IMG/VR virus record: IMGVR_UViG_3300047089_000323
Span: 1-55,425 of that record
DNA from: a virus
Taxonomy: Duplodnaviria; Caudoviricetes
Strand: one strand, 5' to 3'
DNA: 55,425 bases
Shown here: positions 4,301 to 26,350 of the stretch, piece after piece
Layout: each line of letters starts with the position of its first letter
Numbering within the stretch: the first letter of the stretch is position 1
Notes under the pieces: generated by a model
Database searches by the model: none
Told to the model about the DNA's origin: nothing
Seen by the model: only the letters and a program-made list of their open reading frames with translations
Program-made: the position numbers and the translations under genes

Positions 4301-6395
4301 GCGCGAGTCGAGCATCGGAGATGCGTCCGGTGCCGGGAATTACGAGCTGGGGTTTGCCTTCTGCGCCTCTCTCTTCCGTGCCGCTCGCGCCAGCGCTGCG
4401 TGGGAGCGCGCCAGGTTCGCCCGCCACTGCGCCAGGTGAGGGTTGTCCGGGTCCGGCTTGGCGTAAACCGCCGCCATCTTCGCGTGCTGCTCCGACGTCA
4501 TGAGCATCCCATCCTGGGATGTCGCCGACGGTGTCTTGGCGTTCGCGCTTGCGGGCGGCTTGTTCATGGCGATCGGCATCTTCCATCACTGCTCGTTCGT
4601 AGGCAATATCCGGGTCGTTAACGCCTTCCCGCTCCATGATCTGTATGGTGCGGGCATGCAGCTTCGGGTCGATCTCGTTGAGCCCGGATTCCTCGACGAA
4701 ACCGTCGACGGCGCGTTCGATCGCCACGCGATTGAACTCAGCAGCGCGTTCACGCTCTGCTGCCGTGGTCGTGCCTTCATAGCCGATCTGGTATTGCTTG
4801 GTGCCGCGCGCTTCTTCCTCGATTAGCCGCAGGAGGTCGGGGACACCTGTTTTAGCCTCGCGGCCGGCACGATCGCTGGCGTCATTGATGTACGAAGCAT
4901 CGCGTGTCGCGGCTTCCCACGCGCTGTCCAGCGACTTGCCGGTTTTGCGGATCAGTCTGCCAAAGCCAGGGATGAAGGGATTGCCATCCAAGATGGTCTG
5001 CAATTCCGGCGATGGGCGGAGTCCGCCGCGAGAAGCAAGATATTCGAGCAGGCTATAGGTTCCGGGATCGCGCCCGCGCGGCCCGCGGTTTTTAACCGGG
5101 GCCACGACTTCAGGCGGTTCCTTCGGTAGCGGCTGCGCGGGGGCTGTTTGAGTTTCTGGCTCGGGCGGTGGCTCACCCCGCAACGGGCGCGCTTGCGCTT
5201 CGGCATTCGGTATCGCCGGAAATTCGGTCTCCAGCTTGCGGCCGTATTCGGTTGGCTCTTCGACTGGGGTCACCCGGGGCGGTTCAGGCGCAGGAGGTGC
5301 AACGTCGGCTTCCGGCGCCTCGGTCACTCTCGGCTTCAACTTTGCCTGCAGGGCGGCATCGAGTGTCGGATCGCTCACCCGCGGTGCTTCTGGCGGTGTC
5401 GCAGGAGCTGCAGCTTCCTCGCCCGGCGGCACCTGTGCTGTCGGCTCCTCCTTGGCATAGCGCTCGTCGACCCTCGGCTGCTGCTTGGCGGGATCCGTCG
5501 GTGGCGGGGCCCGCTCCTCGGCGGTGCCGGCGGCGGCTTGGGCGCCCGGTGTGCCGTGCGGCGCTACCCGTCCGGCCAGTGCCTCTCCGCGTTGCTCCAG
5601 CCCGCTCACCCAGCCGCGGTTGCCAGGGAGTGCCGCGCCGGCTACTGCGCTGGTCACCAATTGCGCGGGATCGAATTCGCCTTGGGCGAGCTGCGTGCCA
5701 CCTTCAACGCCGCCAGCGACCGCGCCCGAGAGCAGGCGCTGTCCGATCGGGGATTCCAGGAATTTGGCTCCGACGCGGGGGGCAGCAGCCGTGGGTGACA
5801 GACTCAAAGCATAAGGCACAACGGTTCCGGCGGCCGCCGACCATGGATTGGTTTTGGCATCGACTGCCTGCTGAATACTGTCGTCGTAACCTAAAAGTTC
5901 TTTGCCTGCGGAGACGATCTTCTCGCCCAAATAACCGCCAGCAATACCACCGCCGATCCACCCTGCGGCTGCGCCGGCTGGCCCGCCGAGCCAGCCCCCA
6001 GCACCACCGATGGCGCGGCCAGCGATGCCGCCCAGGATGCGCCCGGCCCCGCCCGCCACTGCGCCGGTGGCAAAGCCCGAGGTCGCTGGAATGACGGCAT
6101 CCCGCGCTTTGCGGGCGAAGGTCGCGAGCATGCCTTCGGCTTCCGGTTCATGCGGCCGGTAGCCTTCCCGTTCTGCGGTCGACTGATCCATGATCAGATG
6201 CGCCGGCGGCTTATCGTCCTCGGTCGGCAGGGGACGATAACCGCCGCGCTCCGCTGTCGGCTGATCCATGATCAGTTCGGGTGGTGGACCCGATGGTGGA
6301 CTGGAGTCGTAAGGATGATAACCGTCGCGCTCCGCCATCGACTGATCCATGATCAGTTCGGACGGTGGACCTTCCTCTTCATCGTCATCGGCCAC
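1302..6395 (-). CDS. large internal virion / DNA ejection protein
   Basis: 1697 aa, last large gene of the structural arm; Gly/Ala-rich hydrophobic N-region, Pro-rich linkers, helical C-terminal domain. Confidence 0.7.
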   Translation of the reverse strand: MADDDEEEGPPSELIMDQSMAERDGYHPYDSSPPSGPPPELIMDQPTAERGGYRPLPTEDDKPPAHLIMDQSTAEREGYRPHEPEAEGMLATFARKARDAVIPATSGFATGAVAGGAGRILGGIAGRAIGGAGGWLGGPAGAAAGWIGGGIAGGYLGEKIVSAGKELLGYDDSIQQAVDAKTNPWSAAAGTVVPYALSLSPTAAAPRVGAKFLESPIGQRLLSGAVAGGVEGGTQLAQGEFDPAQLVTSAVAGAALPGNRGWVSGLEQRGEALAGRVAPHGTPGAQAAAGTAEERAPPPTDPAKQQPRVDERYAKEEPTAQVPPGEEAAAPATPPEAPRVSDPTLDAALQAKLKPRVTEAPEADVAPPAPEPPRVTPVEEPTEYGRKLETEFPAIPNAEAQARPLRGEPPPEPETQTAPAQPLPKEPPEVVAPVKNRGPRGRDPGTYSLLEYLASRGGLRPSPELQTILDGNPFIPGFGRLIRKTGKSLDSAWEAATRDASYINDASDRAGREAKTGVPDLLRLIEEEARGTKQYQIGYEGTTTAAERERAAEFNRVAIERAVDGFVEESGLNEIDPKLHARTIQIMEREGVNDPDIAYERAVMEDADRHEQAARKRERQDTVGDIPGWDAHDVGAAREDGGGLRQAGPGQPSPGAVAGEPGALPRSAGASGTEERGAEGKPQLVIPGTGRISDARLAQRRTDERLRPSAPQRPMDEGIFGDTHLQGDLLAGRPAAKPTVGEQLKAKEQARQQQAREPEPAAPEPPARKPITVSSFQHKNGEFYLVRNDTDQPVGGRYKTRKAADVVKQSIETKLNAVTPRSARIREMAARANQIAAEPDAIRRQAIVRGRSGRPIETAPLPIGAEQAILERGAAKVAAGRAPDEPVPPLRQAEARQGPEEGAGQPPKPPTVGQAAAAAGGTPPPGPTSMAYAPPQKRSNLSNLWRSMKLLVGSDIGPHGREAEHIIRGSYGKAKRVFEQTIDLLNPHQQTVLPMNAEDRAAMMNRIEGGDHFPDWKPTPEQQRLIDDHKPAMDLWKTEFSKLDRTAQMKFVADYAAHMYKNPAQAAEFFNSFGRGRGGAGSTKKRTYATYEDAKDAGLEPLTDNPVEIATRYGLSMTNFIAANDALERGVETGVIGYFRSGKSVGATGSPEPQQVGGPPPGWKKLNAPPKGPFLEAYAPEDFADKYNTFYNQGMGGGLHKPIYNALRNSNAAWTQMELGLNAYHFFTMANEAIISDVAKGLNQIFSGQFKEGALSIAKAPRAPRIIYIEGKRFQQDYLNPNSTNPIASIMAEANARPIGRGHAYDILGSAGDENVSRGSFIKSMSRDKINYELKQAWDDIKQDWGLADTVGKQVMYPFKQASRALQTVGAPLFDKYIPALKAGAVHSQMEAWLKANPHVDISTPEGRRAAVDAAKKIVDSTDNRFGEMIHDNLFMNQSLRQAAMVSMRSFSWTIGAMREIAGGTYAAGKAGALSLKNRENRFSMAHPEFDPRISYAIAFPFVVSTISGIYQYLRAGEAPQDWRDLYAPRTGGTVPGLGGKGQVKEHALMPGFQKDVYGWLTHPLREGYAKLGGLPTTALEQINNEDWRGDPITKRGANPLEQLQQRAAHLFSRLGPIGARSMIKGQPETSGISPVETALGFRAPGVDIQDPVHLDNWMQAKTEKEWKAKQQHDKTERAKYARERVYDPREREQVPQ
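6155..6362 (-). repeat. three intragenic repeats LIMDQ(S/P)xAERxGY
   Basis: ELIMDQSMAERDGY / ELIMDQPTAERGGY / HLIMDQSTAEREGY; DNA ctgatccatgatcag x3. Confidence 0.85.
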
Positions 6396-20187: not shown

Positions 20188-20450
20188 GGGGTGTCTTCGA
20201 GCTTACGCAGTCGATCCTGCACGCCGACCATCCAACGGTGGATCGCCTGCAATTCGGTTAGGACGTCGGTCAGCGTGTGATCGACCCGCATGGCCAGGGA
20301 CGAGGACACCCGCATGTCGTCGTTCAATCGCTGCACGTCGCGTTGCAGGACGGTGATGCCTTTGGCAAGCACCGGAATGCCTTCCACCAAAGGAAGTATG
20401 GCGTCGAGCTTGCGATTGATGGCGTCGAGATCGACCGGGGTGTCAGGCAT
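20184..20450 (-). CDS. coiled-coil hypothetical protein
   Basis: 88 aa with heptad pattern; similar to 38072-38395. Confidence 0.7.
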   Translation of the reverse strand: MPDTPVDLDAINRKLDAILPLVEGIPVLAKGITVLQRDVQRLNDDMRVSSSLAMRVDHTLTDVLTELQAIHRWMVGVQDRLRKLEDTP

Positions 20451-21291
20451 GGGCGGTTCTCTTAGGTCGTCCGATTTGTTTTTTTGAGGAACGTAAAAAT
20501 CCGCAATAACGACAGCCCTGCCCCCGATACATTAGTCTTTGGACTGTGGGTGTTCCCGTATAATCGTGCTTCGAACAATACACCGTCACACGCCCATCCA
20601 CGGCTCCTGGCTTGCTAGGTGGTCCAATCTCCTGGCATTCCCAGCCAAGTTCTTTGGTTTTGGCGCGGATGTTTTCAGGCGTATTTTTACGACCACGCCG
20701 ATCCCAAATCTGATTTGTTATTTCACTCTGACGCTTTCCCGCTCCGGGTTTACTCCAACGCACCGTGCGTGCGGTTTCACCGTTGTCGATTCCTTTCATC
20801 TTTGCTGATTGCTCAGCGCGTTTCTCAGATGTCCATGCCTTACGCATGGAATTTACCCGCTCCGCTTTTTTTACTGGATCGGCCCAATTCGCCTTGGACC
20901 CTTCGGCGATACGCGCGATTTGTGCTGCACGTAGATCAGGGTTAGCGGCAAGATACTGTCTTACAGATACGGAATGCGCAGCACGCTCTTCTTTGGTTTT
21001 TCGCAGTCCTTTATTCGTATCGGCGCGAAGCCGAATATTGTAGCGAGGTTTGAGGAAATCTATCCAAAATTGTTCACGTGCTTCGAGAAGCTCCGGAGAG
21101 CACTCTTCAAGAATGCCAGACGTGAATCCTACGCCGTCGTATTTTGCCCACGCTTGCGAAAGCCGCAAGGAATGGTGGCGCTTCTTACGAAGGTGGGAAA
21201 AATGAACCCGCTGCCGCAGTTCGATCTTTTCTGAAGATCCAACATACAGTTTGCCACTGGGGCTTTTGATGAAATAGATGCCACACGTCAT
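20443..21291 (-). CDS. free-standing GIY-YIG homing endonuclease
   Basis: MTCGIYFIKSPSGKLYVGSS...R...H...E.E motifs, NUMOD3-like basic repeats, C-terminal CSKH...GQGCRYC zinc module. Confidence 0.9.
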   Translation of the reverse strand: MTCGIYFIKSPSGKLYVGSSEKIELRQRVHFSHLRKKRHHSLRLSQAWAKYDGVGFTSGILEECSPELLEAREQFWIDFLKPRYNIRLRADTNKGLRKTKEERAAHSVSVRQYLAANPDLRAAQIARIAEGSKANWADPVKKAERVNSMRKAWTSEKRAEQSAKMKGIDNGETARTVRWSKPGAGKRQSEITNQIWDRRGRKNTPENIRAKTKELGWECQEIGPPSKPGAVDGRVTVYCSKHDYTGTPTVQRLMYRGQGCRYCGFLRSSKKQIGRPKRTAHA

Positions 21292-21348
21292 ACTCGGGGT
21301 TCCTTACTTGGAGGCCCCGAGTATGTTACCTAGTGTTACTTATGTCAA
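21289..21348 (-). promoter_or_regulatory. promoter TTGACA-N17-CATACT overlapping an RBS-sequestering hairpin of the endonuclease gene
   Basis: -35 at 21343-21348, -10 at 21320-21325; 11-bp perfect inverted repeat 21289-21299/21315-21325 includes the ATG. Confidence 0.65.
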
Positions 21349-21370: not shown

Positions 21371-22964
21371 TCAGCCAGAAATCACTTGACTTTGGACGAG
21401 CGCGGTCCCGTCGACTACCTGGTATCCGTAGACTTGTACCGAATGTTATCTAGCCGGCTCTTTATCCGGCCTTCTGCAAATTTCTTTGCAGCGCAGACTA
21501 TATCTTCCTGCTTGCGCAGGCTCCGCGCTCGTGGGCCGTTCATCCGGTCTGGATTACTAGACCTAGTCGTTGAACCTTCTTCCTGTTCCCAGGAAGCTTG
21601 GCTGCTGATTACCCAATCCGAAATGTTTTCCAACCATCGCATCTGTCGTTACCAACTACGCTGTGGTCACTTCGGCTCTCAGGGCGTTCCAGCAATTCAC
21701 GGAGTTTAACGAGAGCCTTAATGTAGAGTTGTCGACCCTCGCAGGATTTGGCCGAATGTTAGTTCGGATCTGAGCGTCTCCAATTTTGAAATCTGACTGG
21801 CAAAAGTGATCCCGTGAGCATGGCCAGCGAAGATCGGCTGCTCGCCGGCCGCGAAGTTAGTCGAGTCCGACGTGTTCGAGGGCAGCAGGTTGCTGATATA
21901 CAAAGTGAACCTGTCCACCATTCCGAGCCTGCCATTGCGCAGCATCGATACCGAATCGCCGGACAAGTAAGCCTGCCGCAGTTCCGACTGCTTGAGCATG
22001 CGTCCCGCCCACGATGGCATGACGATCCAGCGTCCAACCTCTGGGATGTTGGTCTCATCGAGACACTGGCCCATGCGCAGGATCAGGTCGATCAGGTTGA
22101 CCTGTCCTGTCGTTGCGCCCTGCCCGACCACCGTGACCGGCGTGCCTTTGACGCCCAGGTTCAAGTTGGCCGAGATCGCACCGGCGGTCGCTCCTTTATT
22201 TGCGGCGTTGGCTTGGCCGACGATGCCGCCGAGCACGTCCTTGTCGACGGTGATCTTGAGCTGCTGGGCAGCATCATCACTCCACATGCTCAGGATGTTC
22301 AGATCAGACTGCACCTCCATGACGTCATCGAGGATCAGGCTGAAATACTTTCCGTTGCCGATAAACAACTCGACAGAACCGCCAGTTGGCCGGTCGAGTC
22401 CGAGAAGGCCATCGGCCTTGTAGTCACGGATCGTGATCGAAGGCTTCGTGCGAATTCGCACACGATCGCCCATGTTTTGGATTTCCAATTTCTTCGCCGA
22501 TAGGGCTCTTTATCCCTACCTTCCTGCAAGTTTCCTTGCAGATGAGACTATCTCATCACCCTTTGCGGGGCCGGGCGCTCGTGGGCGGCTTATCGTTTCC
22601 TCACCGCCTAGTCGTTGAACCTTCCATCGCCCTGGGGCTCTCGCCTTACATCGATGGCTTGGCTGCTGATTGTCTCCGCCACACTCGGTCAGAGGTCCCA
22701 GCAATTCACCCGGTTTAACGAAGGCTAATCCGTCAACCCTCGTAGTCGGTATTGCTGATCGCGCTGAGCACTGTCGAAGCGTAAAATTTCTCGATCAGTT
22801 TCGCTGACCAGATCTCCATTCAACACCGACTCACATCCCCAAGATCACCACTTGGCAGGGATGAACCCCGTCGTTTGGAGGTTGTTCGGCGTGCTGCCGA
22901 CCGGCGTGAGGACTGGTACTGATCCGGACGTTGCGCCCGGAAAACCTGCACTAGGGATAGGCAT
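21371..22964 (-). CDS. major capsid protein, spliced: join of 22964-22857, 22816-22736, 22485-21735, 21438-21371 (335 aa)
   Basis: Exons total 1008 nt and give one frame: ...GFIP|EIWSAKLIEKFY...DYEG|EIQNMGDRVRIR...QILRG L|QVYGYQVVD...; these are recognisable HK97/P22-type coat motifs; follows the scaffold gene; AGAGGGA SD. Confidence 0.9.
21439..21734 (-). ncRNA. group I intron (296 nt, no ORF), capsid intron 3
   Basis: 5' exon ends in U; IGS GCUCUCG pairs CGAGGGU; P GAAUUGCUGGAA, Q AAUCAGCAG, R GUUCAACGACUAG, S AAGAUAUAGUC; P3 CUCCG/CGGAG; GAAA-loop P9; ends in G. Confidence 0.92.
22486..22735 (-). ncRNA. group I intron (250 nt, no ORF), capsid intron 2
   Basis: Exon ACGAGGGU pairs IGS GCCUUCGU; P GAAUUGCUGGGA, Q AAUCAGCAG, R GUUCAACGACUAG, S GAGAUAGUC; P3 CCGGG/CCCGG; ends in G. 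Confidence 0.92.
22817..22856 (-). other. 40-nt core-less group I-like mini-intron, capsid intron 1
   Basis: GCCAAGUGGUGAUCUUGGGGAUGUGAGUCGGUGUUGAAUG sits between CCU and GAG; carries an in-frame stop and a frameshift; P1 and P10 pairings; terminal G. Confidence 0.75.
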
Positions 22965-23019
22965 TGGACGTAGTCCCTCTCGAGGGGGCATTCGTCCATG
23001 CAGGATCGACGCCCCCGGT

Positions 23020-24096
23020 CTAACGGTAGCGCCCCTCTCGCTGCGCCGCGAACATATCGGCTTCCAAGCGAGCCCATTCGGCCTCTCGGCCGACATAGGC
23101 GCCCTTCCGATGCTGCTCGTAGAGCTGCTTGACTTGGGCGCGCGAATAGATGGGTTTGTCGGGCGGCATCGAGGCATCGCCTCCGGTTGCCGGCCTGGCC
23201 CGTCCAGGGGCCGCCAACGAAGCCAGGGAGACCGCCGGCTCTCTAGGCGGCGCTGCCGGCTGAGAGTAGGGCGCTGGCTCGAGGTGGCCCGTGGCCTGCT
23301 CTTCATGCAGGAAACCACGAAAGAACGAGATGACTCTAGGGGCGTCGGCCGCTGAGATGGCCTCGTTCAGGAATGTTTGTCTAACACGTCCCGACAGAAC
23401 GTCAACTCCGAGCAGCCATTTGTGCCAGCGCGGGTCGCGGTCGATCTCGCGGTAGTTCGGGATCGCGAGTTCGACGCGCTGGTCGAGGCCGCGGCGGGCT
23501 TCGCGCGCCAGGCGTTCGCGCAGGTCGGCGTTCTGCTGTTCGATTTGCGCGACCGTCGGGGCGAGCGCGTCGGCGGCGGCGCGGCGGGTGAAGTCGACCA
23601 GGTCGGTGCCGTAGTTCTGCACGTCCTGCTCGGTGAGATAGGACTTCGGCGGCGGTGGCGGCTGGCGGGTCTGGGTGACGGTGCGCTGCACTTGCAGGAG
23701 CTCGTTGCCGAGCTGGGTCATCTGTTCCTGCATTTCGCCGATGGTCTTCTGCGAGGCGTCGTAGCGGCCCTTCATCGCCAGATAGCGATGCTCCCAGTTG
23801 GCGTCCTTCTCGGGCGGCGGCGGCGTCTGGTCCGCAGCCGCCGGCTGGGATGTCAGGGGCTGTGTGGTCGCCTCGACAGGCGCCGGCGGCTGCGGTGCTC
23901 GAGCCTCCGGGAGGATTGCCGGTGGAGGCTCTGGCGATGGCGGCGCCGGCGGCGGTTCTGCAGCTTGGCCGTCCGCGCCGTTTTTGGCATAGAGCGCATC
24001 GACCGCGGCGGCGCGTTTGCGCACCGCTTCCGGGATGGTATCGGGGTCGAACGGCAGTTTCGCCATTGGTTTTGCGTCGACGGTGATATCCGCCAT
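23020..24096 (-). CDS. capsid scaffolding protein
   Basis: 358 aa, Pro-rich N-terminus, WEHRYLAMKGRYD coiled coil, C-terminal AAQREGR; immediately upstream of the capsid gene. Confidence 0.8.
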   Translation of the reverse strand: MADITVDAKPMAKLPFDPDTIPEAVRKRAAAVDALYAKNGADGQAAEPPPAPPSPEPPPAILPEARAPQPPAPVEATTQPLTSQPAAADQTPPPPEKDANWEHRYLAMKGRYDASQKTIGEMQEQMTQLGNELLQVQRTVTQTRQPPPPPKSYLTEQDVQNYGTDLVDFTRRAAADALAPTVAQIEQQNADLRERLAREARRGLDQRVELAIPNYREIDRDPRWHKWLLGVDVLSGRVRQTFLNEAISAADAPRVISFFRGFLHEEQATGHLEPAPYSQPAAPPREPAVSLASLAAPGRARPATGGDASMPPDKPIYSRAQVKQLYEQHRKGAYVGREAEWARLEADMFAAQREGRYR

Positions 24097-25273: not shown

Positions 25274-26350
25274 TCACCGCACCCGCCGCGCGGCGATTCG
25301 CCCGGTACCGGTCACCGAGCCGCCGCCGAACGTCGTCTGCGCCACCAGGTAGACGCTGGTTTGTGCGTTGACGTTGATCCGGCACGTCCCGGTCGGCAAA
25401 ATCTGCTCCTTGTTCGATGTCAGTGCGCTCGACCAGACTTGCGCGATGGCGCCGGAGCCGTTGATCACCTGCGTGTCGGTCGGCAATGTCGCCGGCACGG
25501 TGCTGACGCCCGCCGCGATCGAATTCGGTCCGGTGGTTGCCGGCGTGAAAATGACGAACCCGCCCACGCTCCAGTCCCCCGGCGGCAGCGTCAGGGTGGT
25601 GATGTTGAGCGCGACGGCGGTGGTGAAGCCGATGCCGCCAAGGTTCACCGCTGCCAGCACCTCGCCGACATTGCCGGCCGCTGCGTCGTCGGCCGCGATG
25701 GTGCCCTTGAGGCTGGCGGTCCCGGTGGGACCGGTGGGGCCGGCAGATCCGGCAGGGCCTGTCGTGCCGGTCGGGCCAACGTTGCCGAGCGCGCCGGGCG
25801 TACCGGGCAGGCCTTGCGCACCGGTTGGGCCGACGATGCCGGTGGATCCTGGTGTGCCGGGTGTGCCCTGAAGCCCGGTCGGACCGGTCGCGCCGATCGT
25901 CCCGGAAACACCCTGCACCCCAGACGGCCCGGTTGGACCAGTAGCCCCGGGCGGGCCCATCGGGCCTTCCGGGCCACCGGACACGGCTGCATCGGACAGT
26001 TCCAGCACCAGCCCGAACGTCCGGTCCGCCGCTTGCGGAACTGGCACGGCATGGGTCCCGGAGCGCAGGCGCACCCAGGAGATCGATGTGCCCATTGCTG
26101 GCGGCAGCAGCACGGATGCTCCCGGCGTCACGCTCGGCACGATCACCTCGTACAGACCGAAAGACCCGCCTGTGGTGTGATAGAGATTGTGCCAATTCAC
26201 GCCGTCGGGCGACAACTGGAACGTCACCGGCGCCGGGGTCCAGTCGTCGGGCAGGATCAAGCGCGTCACTTGGTTGCCGTCGCAGTTGACGGCTTGCGAC
26301 ATCGTCTCGCCCTGCAAAATGGTCAGGCCCGACAGCGTGCGCGGTTGCAT
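25274..26350 (-). CDS. collagen-like fibre protein with jelly-roll-like N-domain
   Basis: N-domain paralogous to 26366-26806; G-X-T triplets; beta-rich C-domain. Confidence 0.75.

Follow-up and report, generated by a model that had tools for sequence, protein, structure and literature searches.

The major capsid gene of a soil phage of the Caudoviricetes, represented by the IMG/VR record IMGVR_UViG_3300047089_000323, is interrupted by two full-size group I introns and, upstream of both, by an insert of 40 nucleotides (nt) that carries a group I splice-site apparatus without a catalytic core and that we refer to as the mini-intron. We propose, with a probability of roughly 0.55, that this core-less mini-intron is tethered to the ribozyme of its neighbour, which would excise it. 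For the wider proposal, that related inserts of 34-40 nt are non-autonomous group I introns and that one core would excise two introns from a transcript, the compared sequences lead us to about an even chance. The DNA analysed here, called the window in the following, is the complete virus record of 55,425 bases (CheckV completeness 88%).

In the window, the capsid gene lies in four pieces on the minus strand (22964..21371) and encodes a protein of 335 amino acids (aa). A tblastn search of the window with P0002, an uninterrupted 335-aa homologue, returned four colinear minus-strand pieces, and joining the exons gives 1008 nt, made up of 335 codons and a stop, with no internal stop codons. The joined protein aligns contiguously and without gaps with this uninterrupted capsid homologue, as anticipated in an initial annotation of the same DNA, with 307 of 335 residues identical (92%). 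The coordinates, strand and four-exon map of that annotation are right, as seen from the tblastn pieces and the joined open frame, and its insert lengths of 40, 250 and 296 nt agree with ours. It had also stated that a gene caller would see only a 256-aa fragment of the protein, which is indeed the case, exon 3 lying inside an open reading frame (ORF) at 21718..22488. Contigs from four soil metagenome runs span 22522-23026 or more with no differences from the window, and the interruptions, including the 40-nt insert, are therefore genuine DNA and not an assembly slip.

The identification of the gene as that of the major capsid protein was upheld by matches of the protein to Pfam PF25209 (Phage_capsid_4; 32.2 bits against a cut-off of 27), to PHROG 267 'major head protein' (6.6e-35) and to PDB 8e16 'Major capsid protein, gp6' (E 1.7e-23), and by a Foldseek search in which the top matches were all phage capsids, with template modelling (TM) scores of 0.33-0.36 from a poor model. 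Because the AlphaFold2 model of P0002, built with 58 close homologues, is poor (mean predicted local distance difference test (pLDDT) score 55.2, residues 1-136 below 50) and the fold evidence is weak, the capsid call rests on the sequence matches. An HK97 fold had been expected from structure prediction; the family profile and the solved capsid relative speak for this fold, whereas the predicted model was too poor (pLDDT 55) to bear it out.

Related inserts were collected with two pattern scans, one for the two exon ends with any 25-55 bases between them and one for the 5' exon end followed by the conserved guide block, both of which left the neighbouring intron unspecified. The first scan returned seven viral loci and 23 metagenome stretches, three of which are this capsid; the other 20 stretches lack the guide block and their flanks are not this capsid, the one checked by tblastn (L100) giving no match. 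The second scan returned 14 viral loci, seven of them new. Together with the window, the mini-insert is found at 16 other loci, amounting to 14 sequence variants of 34-40 nt, and in all 14 the site is the same, between Pro and Glu of Phe-Ile-Pro-Glu-Ile-Trp. The capsid genes that bear it range from 25 to 98% identity to P0002, with ~25% in L113, L114, L117 and L118. Among the 120 best protein homologues, all 94 that cover this stretch have Phe-[Ile/Val]-Pro-Glu-Ile-Trp-Ser uninterrupted. A blastn search of GenBank phages with the mini-insert region of L117 gave no match, and hence no cultured carrier is known.

The anatomy of the mini-insert, its conservation and its association with a neighbouring insertion are directly observed. 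In the window, exon 1 ends in ..UUC AUC CCU, and 40 nt follow before GAG AUC UGG, with all three frames closed inside the insert. An in-frame TGA or TAA stands 0-3 codons after the Pro codon in every one of the 14 variants. Each variant contains the sequence (G/A)AUCUY, which pairs with the first six bases of exon 2, GAGAUN, as in a P10 helix, and directly joined to it is GGGGAUG, which pairs with CAUCCCU at the end of exon 1 as in a P1 helix, its first G standing opposite the final U. The variants then end in a variable tail of 17-20 nt and a final G, and all 14 follow a U. Across the eight close variants, all 56 of the P1 cells and 47 of the 48 P10 cells are paired, as against 27-61% when the partner is slid by 1-3 columns; the probability of meeting such a 13-nt splint in a random 40-mer with this base composition is ~2e-4. 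The hairpin shares its design with P1 of intron 1, namely 7 base pairs (bp) and a loop of ~10 nt that holds the P10 strand, and in L085, L090 and L112 the Infernal program takes it as the P1 of the downstream intron.

A P10 strand directly 5' of the P1 guide, a U.G pair at the 5' splice site and a terminal G constitute the group I splice-site apparatus, and the mini-insert has all of these: a P1 with U.G wobble, an adjoining P10 and a terminal G. The label 'mini-intron' in the initial annotation was thus well founded, as the insert ends in G and holds a group I guide that fits precisely this junction of exons. A catalytic core (P3-P9, including a G-binding site in P7) could not, however, be accommodated, since only ~10 nt are left beyond the P1 loop, guide and anchor, and for lack of a core the mini-insert is not a self-sufficient member of group I. 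It may still work like a group I intron with a borrowed core.

A structural link to a possible lender is provided by the tail of the insert. In the window, AGUCGGUGUUG in the tail pairs with CAAUACCGACU, which corresponds to nt 63-73 of the 81 nt of exon 2 (22754-22744). This duplex has an energy of -17.8 kcal/mol, which was reached by 3 of 1000 shuffled tails. When the tail is searched against the whole of exon 2, the best duplex in each of the 14 variants stops 5-9 nt short of the next intron's 5' splice site. In the other variants with a long exon 2, the paired stretches are nt 56-64 of 72, 56-64 of 73, 59-68 of 75 and 47-65 of 72, all near the end of the exon, so the helix tracks the position of the neighbour and not the start of the exon. 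A placement of the helix at exon nt 8-15 in all variants was considered and discarded when the whole-exon search moved the five long-exon cases to nt 56-73; in L112, for example, the helix near the exon end has -14.1 kcal/mol versus -4.6 at nt 8-15.

Shuffled tails match the observed energy in 1-30 of 1000 trials in 13 variants, and for position and energy jointly the count is 0 of 1000 in each of the five long-exon variants. Matched pairs of tail and exon were beaten by only 3 of 20000 permutations. The helix also shows compensatory changes among variants with a short exon 2, where exon GGAGCGA faces tail UCGCUCC (L118), exon GGUCCG faces tail CGGACC (L117) and exon GGUCGG faces tail CCGACC (L114). 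Of the minimum free energy (MFE) folds of six precursors, five (window, L086, L090, L113 and L117) have the P1 of the mini-insert, the anchor helix and the P1 of the neighbour next to one another, with gaps of 0-2 nt. In some variants, such as L086, the anchor helix overlaps the neighbour's P1 strand.

The neighbour itself is always present: a further insertion follows the mini-insert by 20-24 nt in nine variants and by 72-81 nt in five, that is, in 14 of 14. It reaches the gathering score of the Rfam group I intron model RF00028 (50 bits) in 7 of 14 variants, and the neighbours in L114 and L118 share core blocks of the Rfam-matching introns. By way of contrast, full length (334-340 aa) is seen in 93 of the 120 best protein homologues, and among the best 80 of 394 viral loci all 80 are uninterrupted. 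At one locus, L116, a distant capsid gene is interrupted at this site by 571 nt (positions 5255-5825) that contain a LAGLIDADG_1 ORF (Pfam, 1.6e-8) and share the guide block of the mini-inserts, after which the capsid frame runs for 266 codons without another break; judging from these features, this insert is likely the full-length ancestor form of the mini-inserts.

The neighbouring insertions are themselves varied. Those in L113, L114, L117 and L118, located 20 nt past the mini-insert, contain a LAGLIDADG-type ORF that starts at an ATG before AAUCAGCAGCCAAG; this ORF reads through AAUCAGCAGCCAAG, which is a conserved core block, so coding sequence and ribozyme core overlap. In a second type of short insert (L082:3308-3468, and in L083, L094 and L115), a P1 pairing, the linker UUAAAA and the motifs CAGACUA..UAGUC resemble a small group I core; its P1 and P7-like motifs were seen by eye only, and it may be a group I subtype missed by the Rfam model. 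Rfam at E <= 0.01 returned nothing in L115 or L116. The related capsid gene in L082 (3143-5859, plus strand) has apparently five or six interruptions: the mini-insert is followed after 23 nt by the 161-nt insert, ~1 kb is inserted behind ..Ala-Ile-Ser-Asn, and two RF00028 introns occupy 4745-4948 and 5546-5760. The relatives together use at least seven insertion sites in the capsid gene.

How the mini-intron might leave the transcript can be outlined as follows. The capsid gene would be transcribed as one RNA with three interruptions, in which the mini-intron would be a group I remnant that has kept the guide block and the terminal G. Pairing between its tail and exon 2 would set its P1 hairpin beside the P1 of intron 1, whose core would dock the mini-intron P1, carry out both transesterifications and join Pro36 to Glu37, before or besides the self-splicing of intron 1. 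Both the splicing of the mini-insert as such and the part played in it by the neighbour's core are our inference. Loss of the core from a full intron at the site is the probable origin of the mini-intron, which probably spreads through co-conversion during the homing of the neighbour or of the adjacent homing endonuclease gene; because an insert 20-81 nt from a homing intron would, as proposed here, be co-converted with it, this could account for how the mini-intron came to occupy a conserved motif in capsid genes that differ greatly. Where the anchor helix overlaps the neighbour's P1 strand, as in L086, one may speculate that it delays the self-splicing of the neighbour.

Several points weigh against excision by the neighbour. 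P1 and P10 are nearly without covariation, shuffles reaching the observed scores in 221-287 of 500 trials; since coding fixes the exon strands, what these two helices offer is conservation and not compensation. The anchor helix is weak in L082, where 79 of 1000 shuffles match it, and does not appear in the MFE fold of L091. The immediate neighbour is without Rfam confirmation in 7 of the 14 variants: in L113 it stays below the threshold with 34.5 bits, the 161-nt insert of L082 gives no RF00028 match even at E <= 1 with a 261-base query, and the neighbours in L083, L094 and L115 are of the same Rfam-unrecognised type. As the variants share ancestry, their 14 of 14 association does not amount to 14 independent trials, and a full intron standing alone is a single case (L116), undetected by Rfam. 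If the neighbour spliced first, the core would be removed together with it. Among the 24 sequence-bearing runs listed, none is an RNA run. Finally, we know of no natural group I core that processes a second, core-less intron in cis.

Among other explanations for the insert, we regard as unlikely its removal as a group I element without the neighbour, either as a minimal self-splicing element or with the help of a trans-acting excised intron RNA or a protein cofactor. Harris and Rogers (PMC3160393) describe putative fungal group I introns of 63-75 nt with P1, P7, P10 and a pairing of the middle of the intron with the 3' exon, one of which, of 67 nt, is stated to splice in vitro, and the mini-insert likewise has P1, P10 and intron-exon pairing, yet 34-40 nt leave nothing for P7 or a G-binding site, and removal of this kind needs neither a constant anchor beside the neighbour's P1 nor an insertion downstream in all 14 variants. 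Less probable still is that the insert is retained, so that translation yields a 39-aa N-terminal peptide up to the TGA and restarts at the ATG at 22819, or yields the C-terminal part only. The window does have this ATG directly before GAG, with GGAG at the junction, and an ATG before GAG recurs in L082 and L115, as does a TTG in L114 and L117; against this, a canonical start codon is found in only 5 of 14 variants, the others having AAG, CAG, TCG or CTG, so that the final G alone is constant. Restart would also leave the guide block and the anchor helix without a role, and would split a motif that is contiguous in the 94 homologues. Furthermore, exon 1 is intact and under purifying selection: its ATG-started frame is open in 13 of 13 mini-bearing variants examined, and between the L082 group and L091 it has 0.5 synonymous differences per site and 0.12 non-synonymous ones. 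With the frame intact and synonymous change four times the non-synonymous, we argue that exon 1 is still joined to the protein.

Frameshifting over the insert was considered and is ruled out by the stops in all three frames of the 40 nt. These same closed frames are compatible with ribosome hopping, in which the ribosome would take off at 22850-22848, a UGG that precedes the UGA, and land at 22810-22808, again a UGG, the length of the protein being the same; in the window the two codons match, a stop follows the take-off codon and GGAG lies 3 nt before the landing site. A stop after the take-off codon does not discriminate, since introns 1 and 2 show the same feature, and a productive matched landing codon exists in just 3 of 14 variants (window, L085 and L118), while L113 and L114 have the stop directly after Pro and no matching codon downstream. 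Moreover, hopping in the window would produce Ala-Lys-Trp where all 94 homologues have Glu-Ile-Trp, and we hold it to be very improbable. We give hardly any credence to a broken gene, whether in a defective phage or through a decaying, functionless intron remnant. All sequences are metagenomic, with no virion or plaque tied to them, and the record is estimated to be 88% complete, which would leave room for such decay; but 14 diverged variants keep the guide block, the terminal G, the in-frame stop and a compensated anchor helix, identical DNA occurs in four soil runs, and the four exons are in frame at 92% identity to an intact homologue.

The two large inserts, which had been taken for group I introns, passed the covariance-model check, matching RF00028 across the whole model (positions 1-253) with 72.6 bits for intron 1 and 72.5 bits for intron 2 (E ~1.5e-16); they are the only RF00028 matches in the whole record. 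All six sequence blocks that the initial annotation named as shared were found in both introns and in the same order, and over the alignment as a whole 139 of 247 positions are identical. The shared 7-nt 5' exon end was confirmed as well, CGAGGGT having exactly two occurrences in the joined coding sequence, both of which end at an intron junction. The guide GCCUUCG of intron 1 (22725-22719) and the guide GCUCUCG of intron 2 each pair with CGAGGGU over 7 bp that end in a U.G wobble, and the introns end in ..AAAUUG (intron 1) and ..AUUCGG (intron 2), both with a terminal G. That both introns lack P2 can be read from the sequence, because the guide runs via the 5 nt UUAAA straight to P3. Neither intron encodes an endonuclease, as had been stated: sense ORFs in introns 1 and 2 reach 68 codons at most, and a Pfam search with four of the intron ORFs gave no family for any of them at E <= 0.01. 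An in-frame stop is met at codon 1 of intron 1 (TGA) and at codon 5 of intron 2. We treat both as introns of group I, putatively able to splice themselves.

In one soil run, a related contig joins across intron 1 and has a loose end reading through the Gly-Glu-Ile junction; judged from these sequences, such a presence/absence polymorphism of intron 1 is of the kind expected of a mobile intron. Contigs from soil runs X1 and X3 that correspond to window 21455-21603 carry 14 differences from the intron 2 core at a depth of 23-36, as compared with ~5 for the phage itself, so more abundant relatives of intron 2 exist elsewhere in the same soils. Spread by reverse splicing, proposed in the initial annotation, is plausible, and a choice of target by the guide sequence fits the fact that both copies of CGAGGGT end at introns. 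An orthologue of intron 2 occupies the same site in L120 (229 of 288 positions identical, exon AGAGGGU) without intron 1, and the closest relatives of intron 1 (in L085, L090 and L091) are inserted 6-9 nt upstream of the intron 1 site, with guides fitted there. On this comparison, the history of the introns appears older and messier than a recent jump within the capsid gene. As for a further suggestion, that splicing controls capsid output, nothing bearing on the idea turned up.

A GIY-YIG homing endonuclease gene, which the initial annotation missed, lies downstream of the capsid gene (Table 1). Its product matches Pfam PF01541 (34.6 bits against a cut-off of 22.6, 2.4e-8) and PHROG 314 and 7168 'homing endonuclease', and its G+C content is 50% versus 62% for the window. 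Homologues with 53-100% identity occupy the same place behind the capsid gene in five viral contigs (L119-L123), whereas Rhizobium phage RHph_TM3_14A has no such gene there. The whole capsid gene is available in four of the five contigs, uninterrupted in L122 and L123 and interrupted in L119 (of the window's type) and L120. Because homologues also stand behind uninterrupted capsid genes (L122, L123), the GIY-YIG gene is not tied to the introns, and the same observation weakens the idea of 'collaborative homing' of the ORF-less introns by its enzyme. The gene is a free-standing predicted mobile element in its own right, whose enzyme could drag intron 2 along by gene conversion, by analogy with T4 mobE. 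One base before its ATG ends a G+C-rich hairpin of 7 bp, CUCGGGG..CCCCGAG, with a 15-nt loop containing AAGGAA (window 21293-21321, minus strand), which may serve translational or transcriptional control of the endonuclease.

Besides the capsid gene, the window holds genes for a portal or head-tail adaptor, a scaffold-like protein and internal virion proteins as well as primase-helicase genes. Upstream of the scaffold-like gene is a 358-aa ORF with collagen triple-helix repeats (window 25274-26350, minus strand; PF01391, 1.4e-13). The closest relatives with a name belong to the RHph_TM3_14A group of Rhizobium phages, in which the capsid gene is a single 987-nt ORF.

Table 1 Positions in the window of the capsid gene pieces, their interruptions and the adjacent endonuclease gene.
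Feature	Position	Strand	Remarks
Capsid exon 1	22857..22964	minus	36 codons, Met..Gly-Phe-Ile-Pro; tblastn
Exon 1 last 7 nt, CAUCCCU	22863-22857	minus	5' strand of mini-intron P1
Mini-intron	22817..22856	minus	40 nt
P1 loop with in-frame TGA	22847-22845	minus	mini-intron
P10 strand GAUCUU	22846-22841	minus	mini-intron
P1 guide GGGGAUG	22840-22834	minus	mini-intron
Anchor strand AGUCGGUGUUG	22831-22821	minus	mini-intron tail
Terminal G	22817	minus	mini-intron
Capsid exon 2	22736..22816	minus	81 nt, Glu-Ile-Trp..Asp-Tyr-Glu-Gly; tblastn
Exon 2 first 6 nt, GAGAUC		minus	P10 partner of mini-intron
Exon 2 last 7 nt, CGAGGGU		minus	5' strand of intron 1 P1
Group I intron 1	22486..22735	minus	250 nt; RF00028 72.6 bits; junction by homology
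Capsid exon 3	21735..22485	minus	751 nt; tblastn
Group I intron 2	21439..21734	minus	296 nt, longer P5 region; RF00028 72.5 bits
Capsid exon 4	21371..21438	minus	22 codons and TGA; tblastn aa 314-335
tblastn piece, P0002 aa 1-39	22964..22848	minus	
tblastn piece, P0002 aa 37-63	22816..22736	minus	
tblastn piece, P0002 aa 64-313	22485..21736	minus	
tblastn piece, P0002 aa 314-335	21439..21374	minus	
Free-standing GIY-YIG homing endonuclease gene	20443..21291	minus	282 aa; 80 nt past capsid stop

Group I introns are taken to be self-sufficient, each with its own ribozyme. If the borrowed-core step is true, the mini-inserts would form a new category, the helper-dependent group I intron, which would correspond within group I to helper-dependent mobile elements and would hitch-hike at the DNA level on the homing of its helper. 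Group I introns would then, like transposons and group II introns, spawn non-autonomous derivatives, and a natural group I core would accept a second P1 substrate in cis. The mini-intron would be the smallest intron known in a bacterial virus, and would offer the smallest natural substrate for studies of P1 docking and 3' splice-site choice. There is also a practical side: gene callers report only fragments of the capsid gene, which is a marker for phage taxonomy, and a 40-nt insert closing all frames would read as a frameshift or a pseudogene. Owing to such fragmented calls, capsid-based soil virome surveys will under-count or mis-cluster this lineage unless the introns are modelled.

Compared with known systems, the two full introns add new examples to a known kind, and on their own they are not unusual, because group I introns in late and structural genes of phages are in print. 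Landthaler and Shub reportedly described in 1999 three introns in one gene of Staphylococcus phage Twort, together with exon skipping, and Lactobacillus phage JCL1032 is reported to have introns in two late genes. Introns in terL and ~18.5 introns per genome are given for the Jug phages in a further report (PMC12880540). Like these phage late-gene introns, introns 1 and 2 are small and ORF-less, lie in an essential late gene, have an in-frame stop just inside, and several related ones share a gene; unlike them, they sit in the major capsid gene of a soil phage whose relatives have up to five or six interruptions. The exon skipping in Twort implies that a phage group I core can use the splice site of a neighbour. 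Full-text searches of the literature, supplements excluded, turned up no account of a core-less group I insert in a phage.

Phage T4 gene 60 contains a 50-nt translational bypass, which moves together with the homing endonuclease gene mobA. The likeness lies in a short non-coding gap in an essential phage gene, with a stop at its start and homing elements close by, but in 11 of 14 variants the mini-insert lacks a matching pair of take-off and landing codons, and it has a group I guide instead. Another parallel is found in the group III introns of Euglena plastids, streamlined group II introns that are thought to need trans-acting help. As with these, the mini-inserts are reduced to the parts that define the splice sites, in a genome crowded with full-size relatives; the intron class, the chemistry and the host are different, and in both the dependence is a presumed one.

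For the mobility of the ORF-less introns, the nearest comparison is T4 mobE, which mobilises the defunct I-TevIII nrdB intron in trans, as set out in Wilson and Edgell 2009 (PMC2790892). There, too, a free-standing endonuclease gene lies beside a gene with ORF-less introns, and conversion could carry the immobile introns along; the gene in the window differs in being of GIY-YIG type and in having homologues behind uninterrupted capsid genes as well (L122, L123). For the mini-inserts, the comparison is with the 'degenerate' group I introns of 56-81 nt in fungal nuclear small-subunit (SSU) ribosomal DNA (rDNA), among them the 67-nt PaSSU of Phialophora americana, described in Harris and Rogers 2011 (PMC3160393). 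Like these, the mini-insert is below ribozyme size, keeps P1, P10 and 3'-exon pairing, and has a presumed origin from a full intron. The fungal introns reside in eukaryote rRNA genes and are said in the same text to keep P7 and to self-splice (PMC3160393), whereas the phage mini-inserts are half their size, lie in a protein-coding gene, have no candidate P7 and are always located 20-81 nt upstream of a full-size insertion, base-paired beside its P1.

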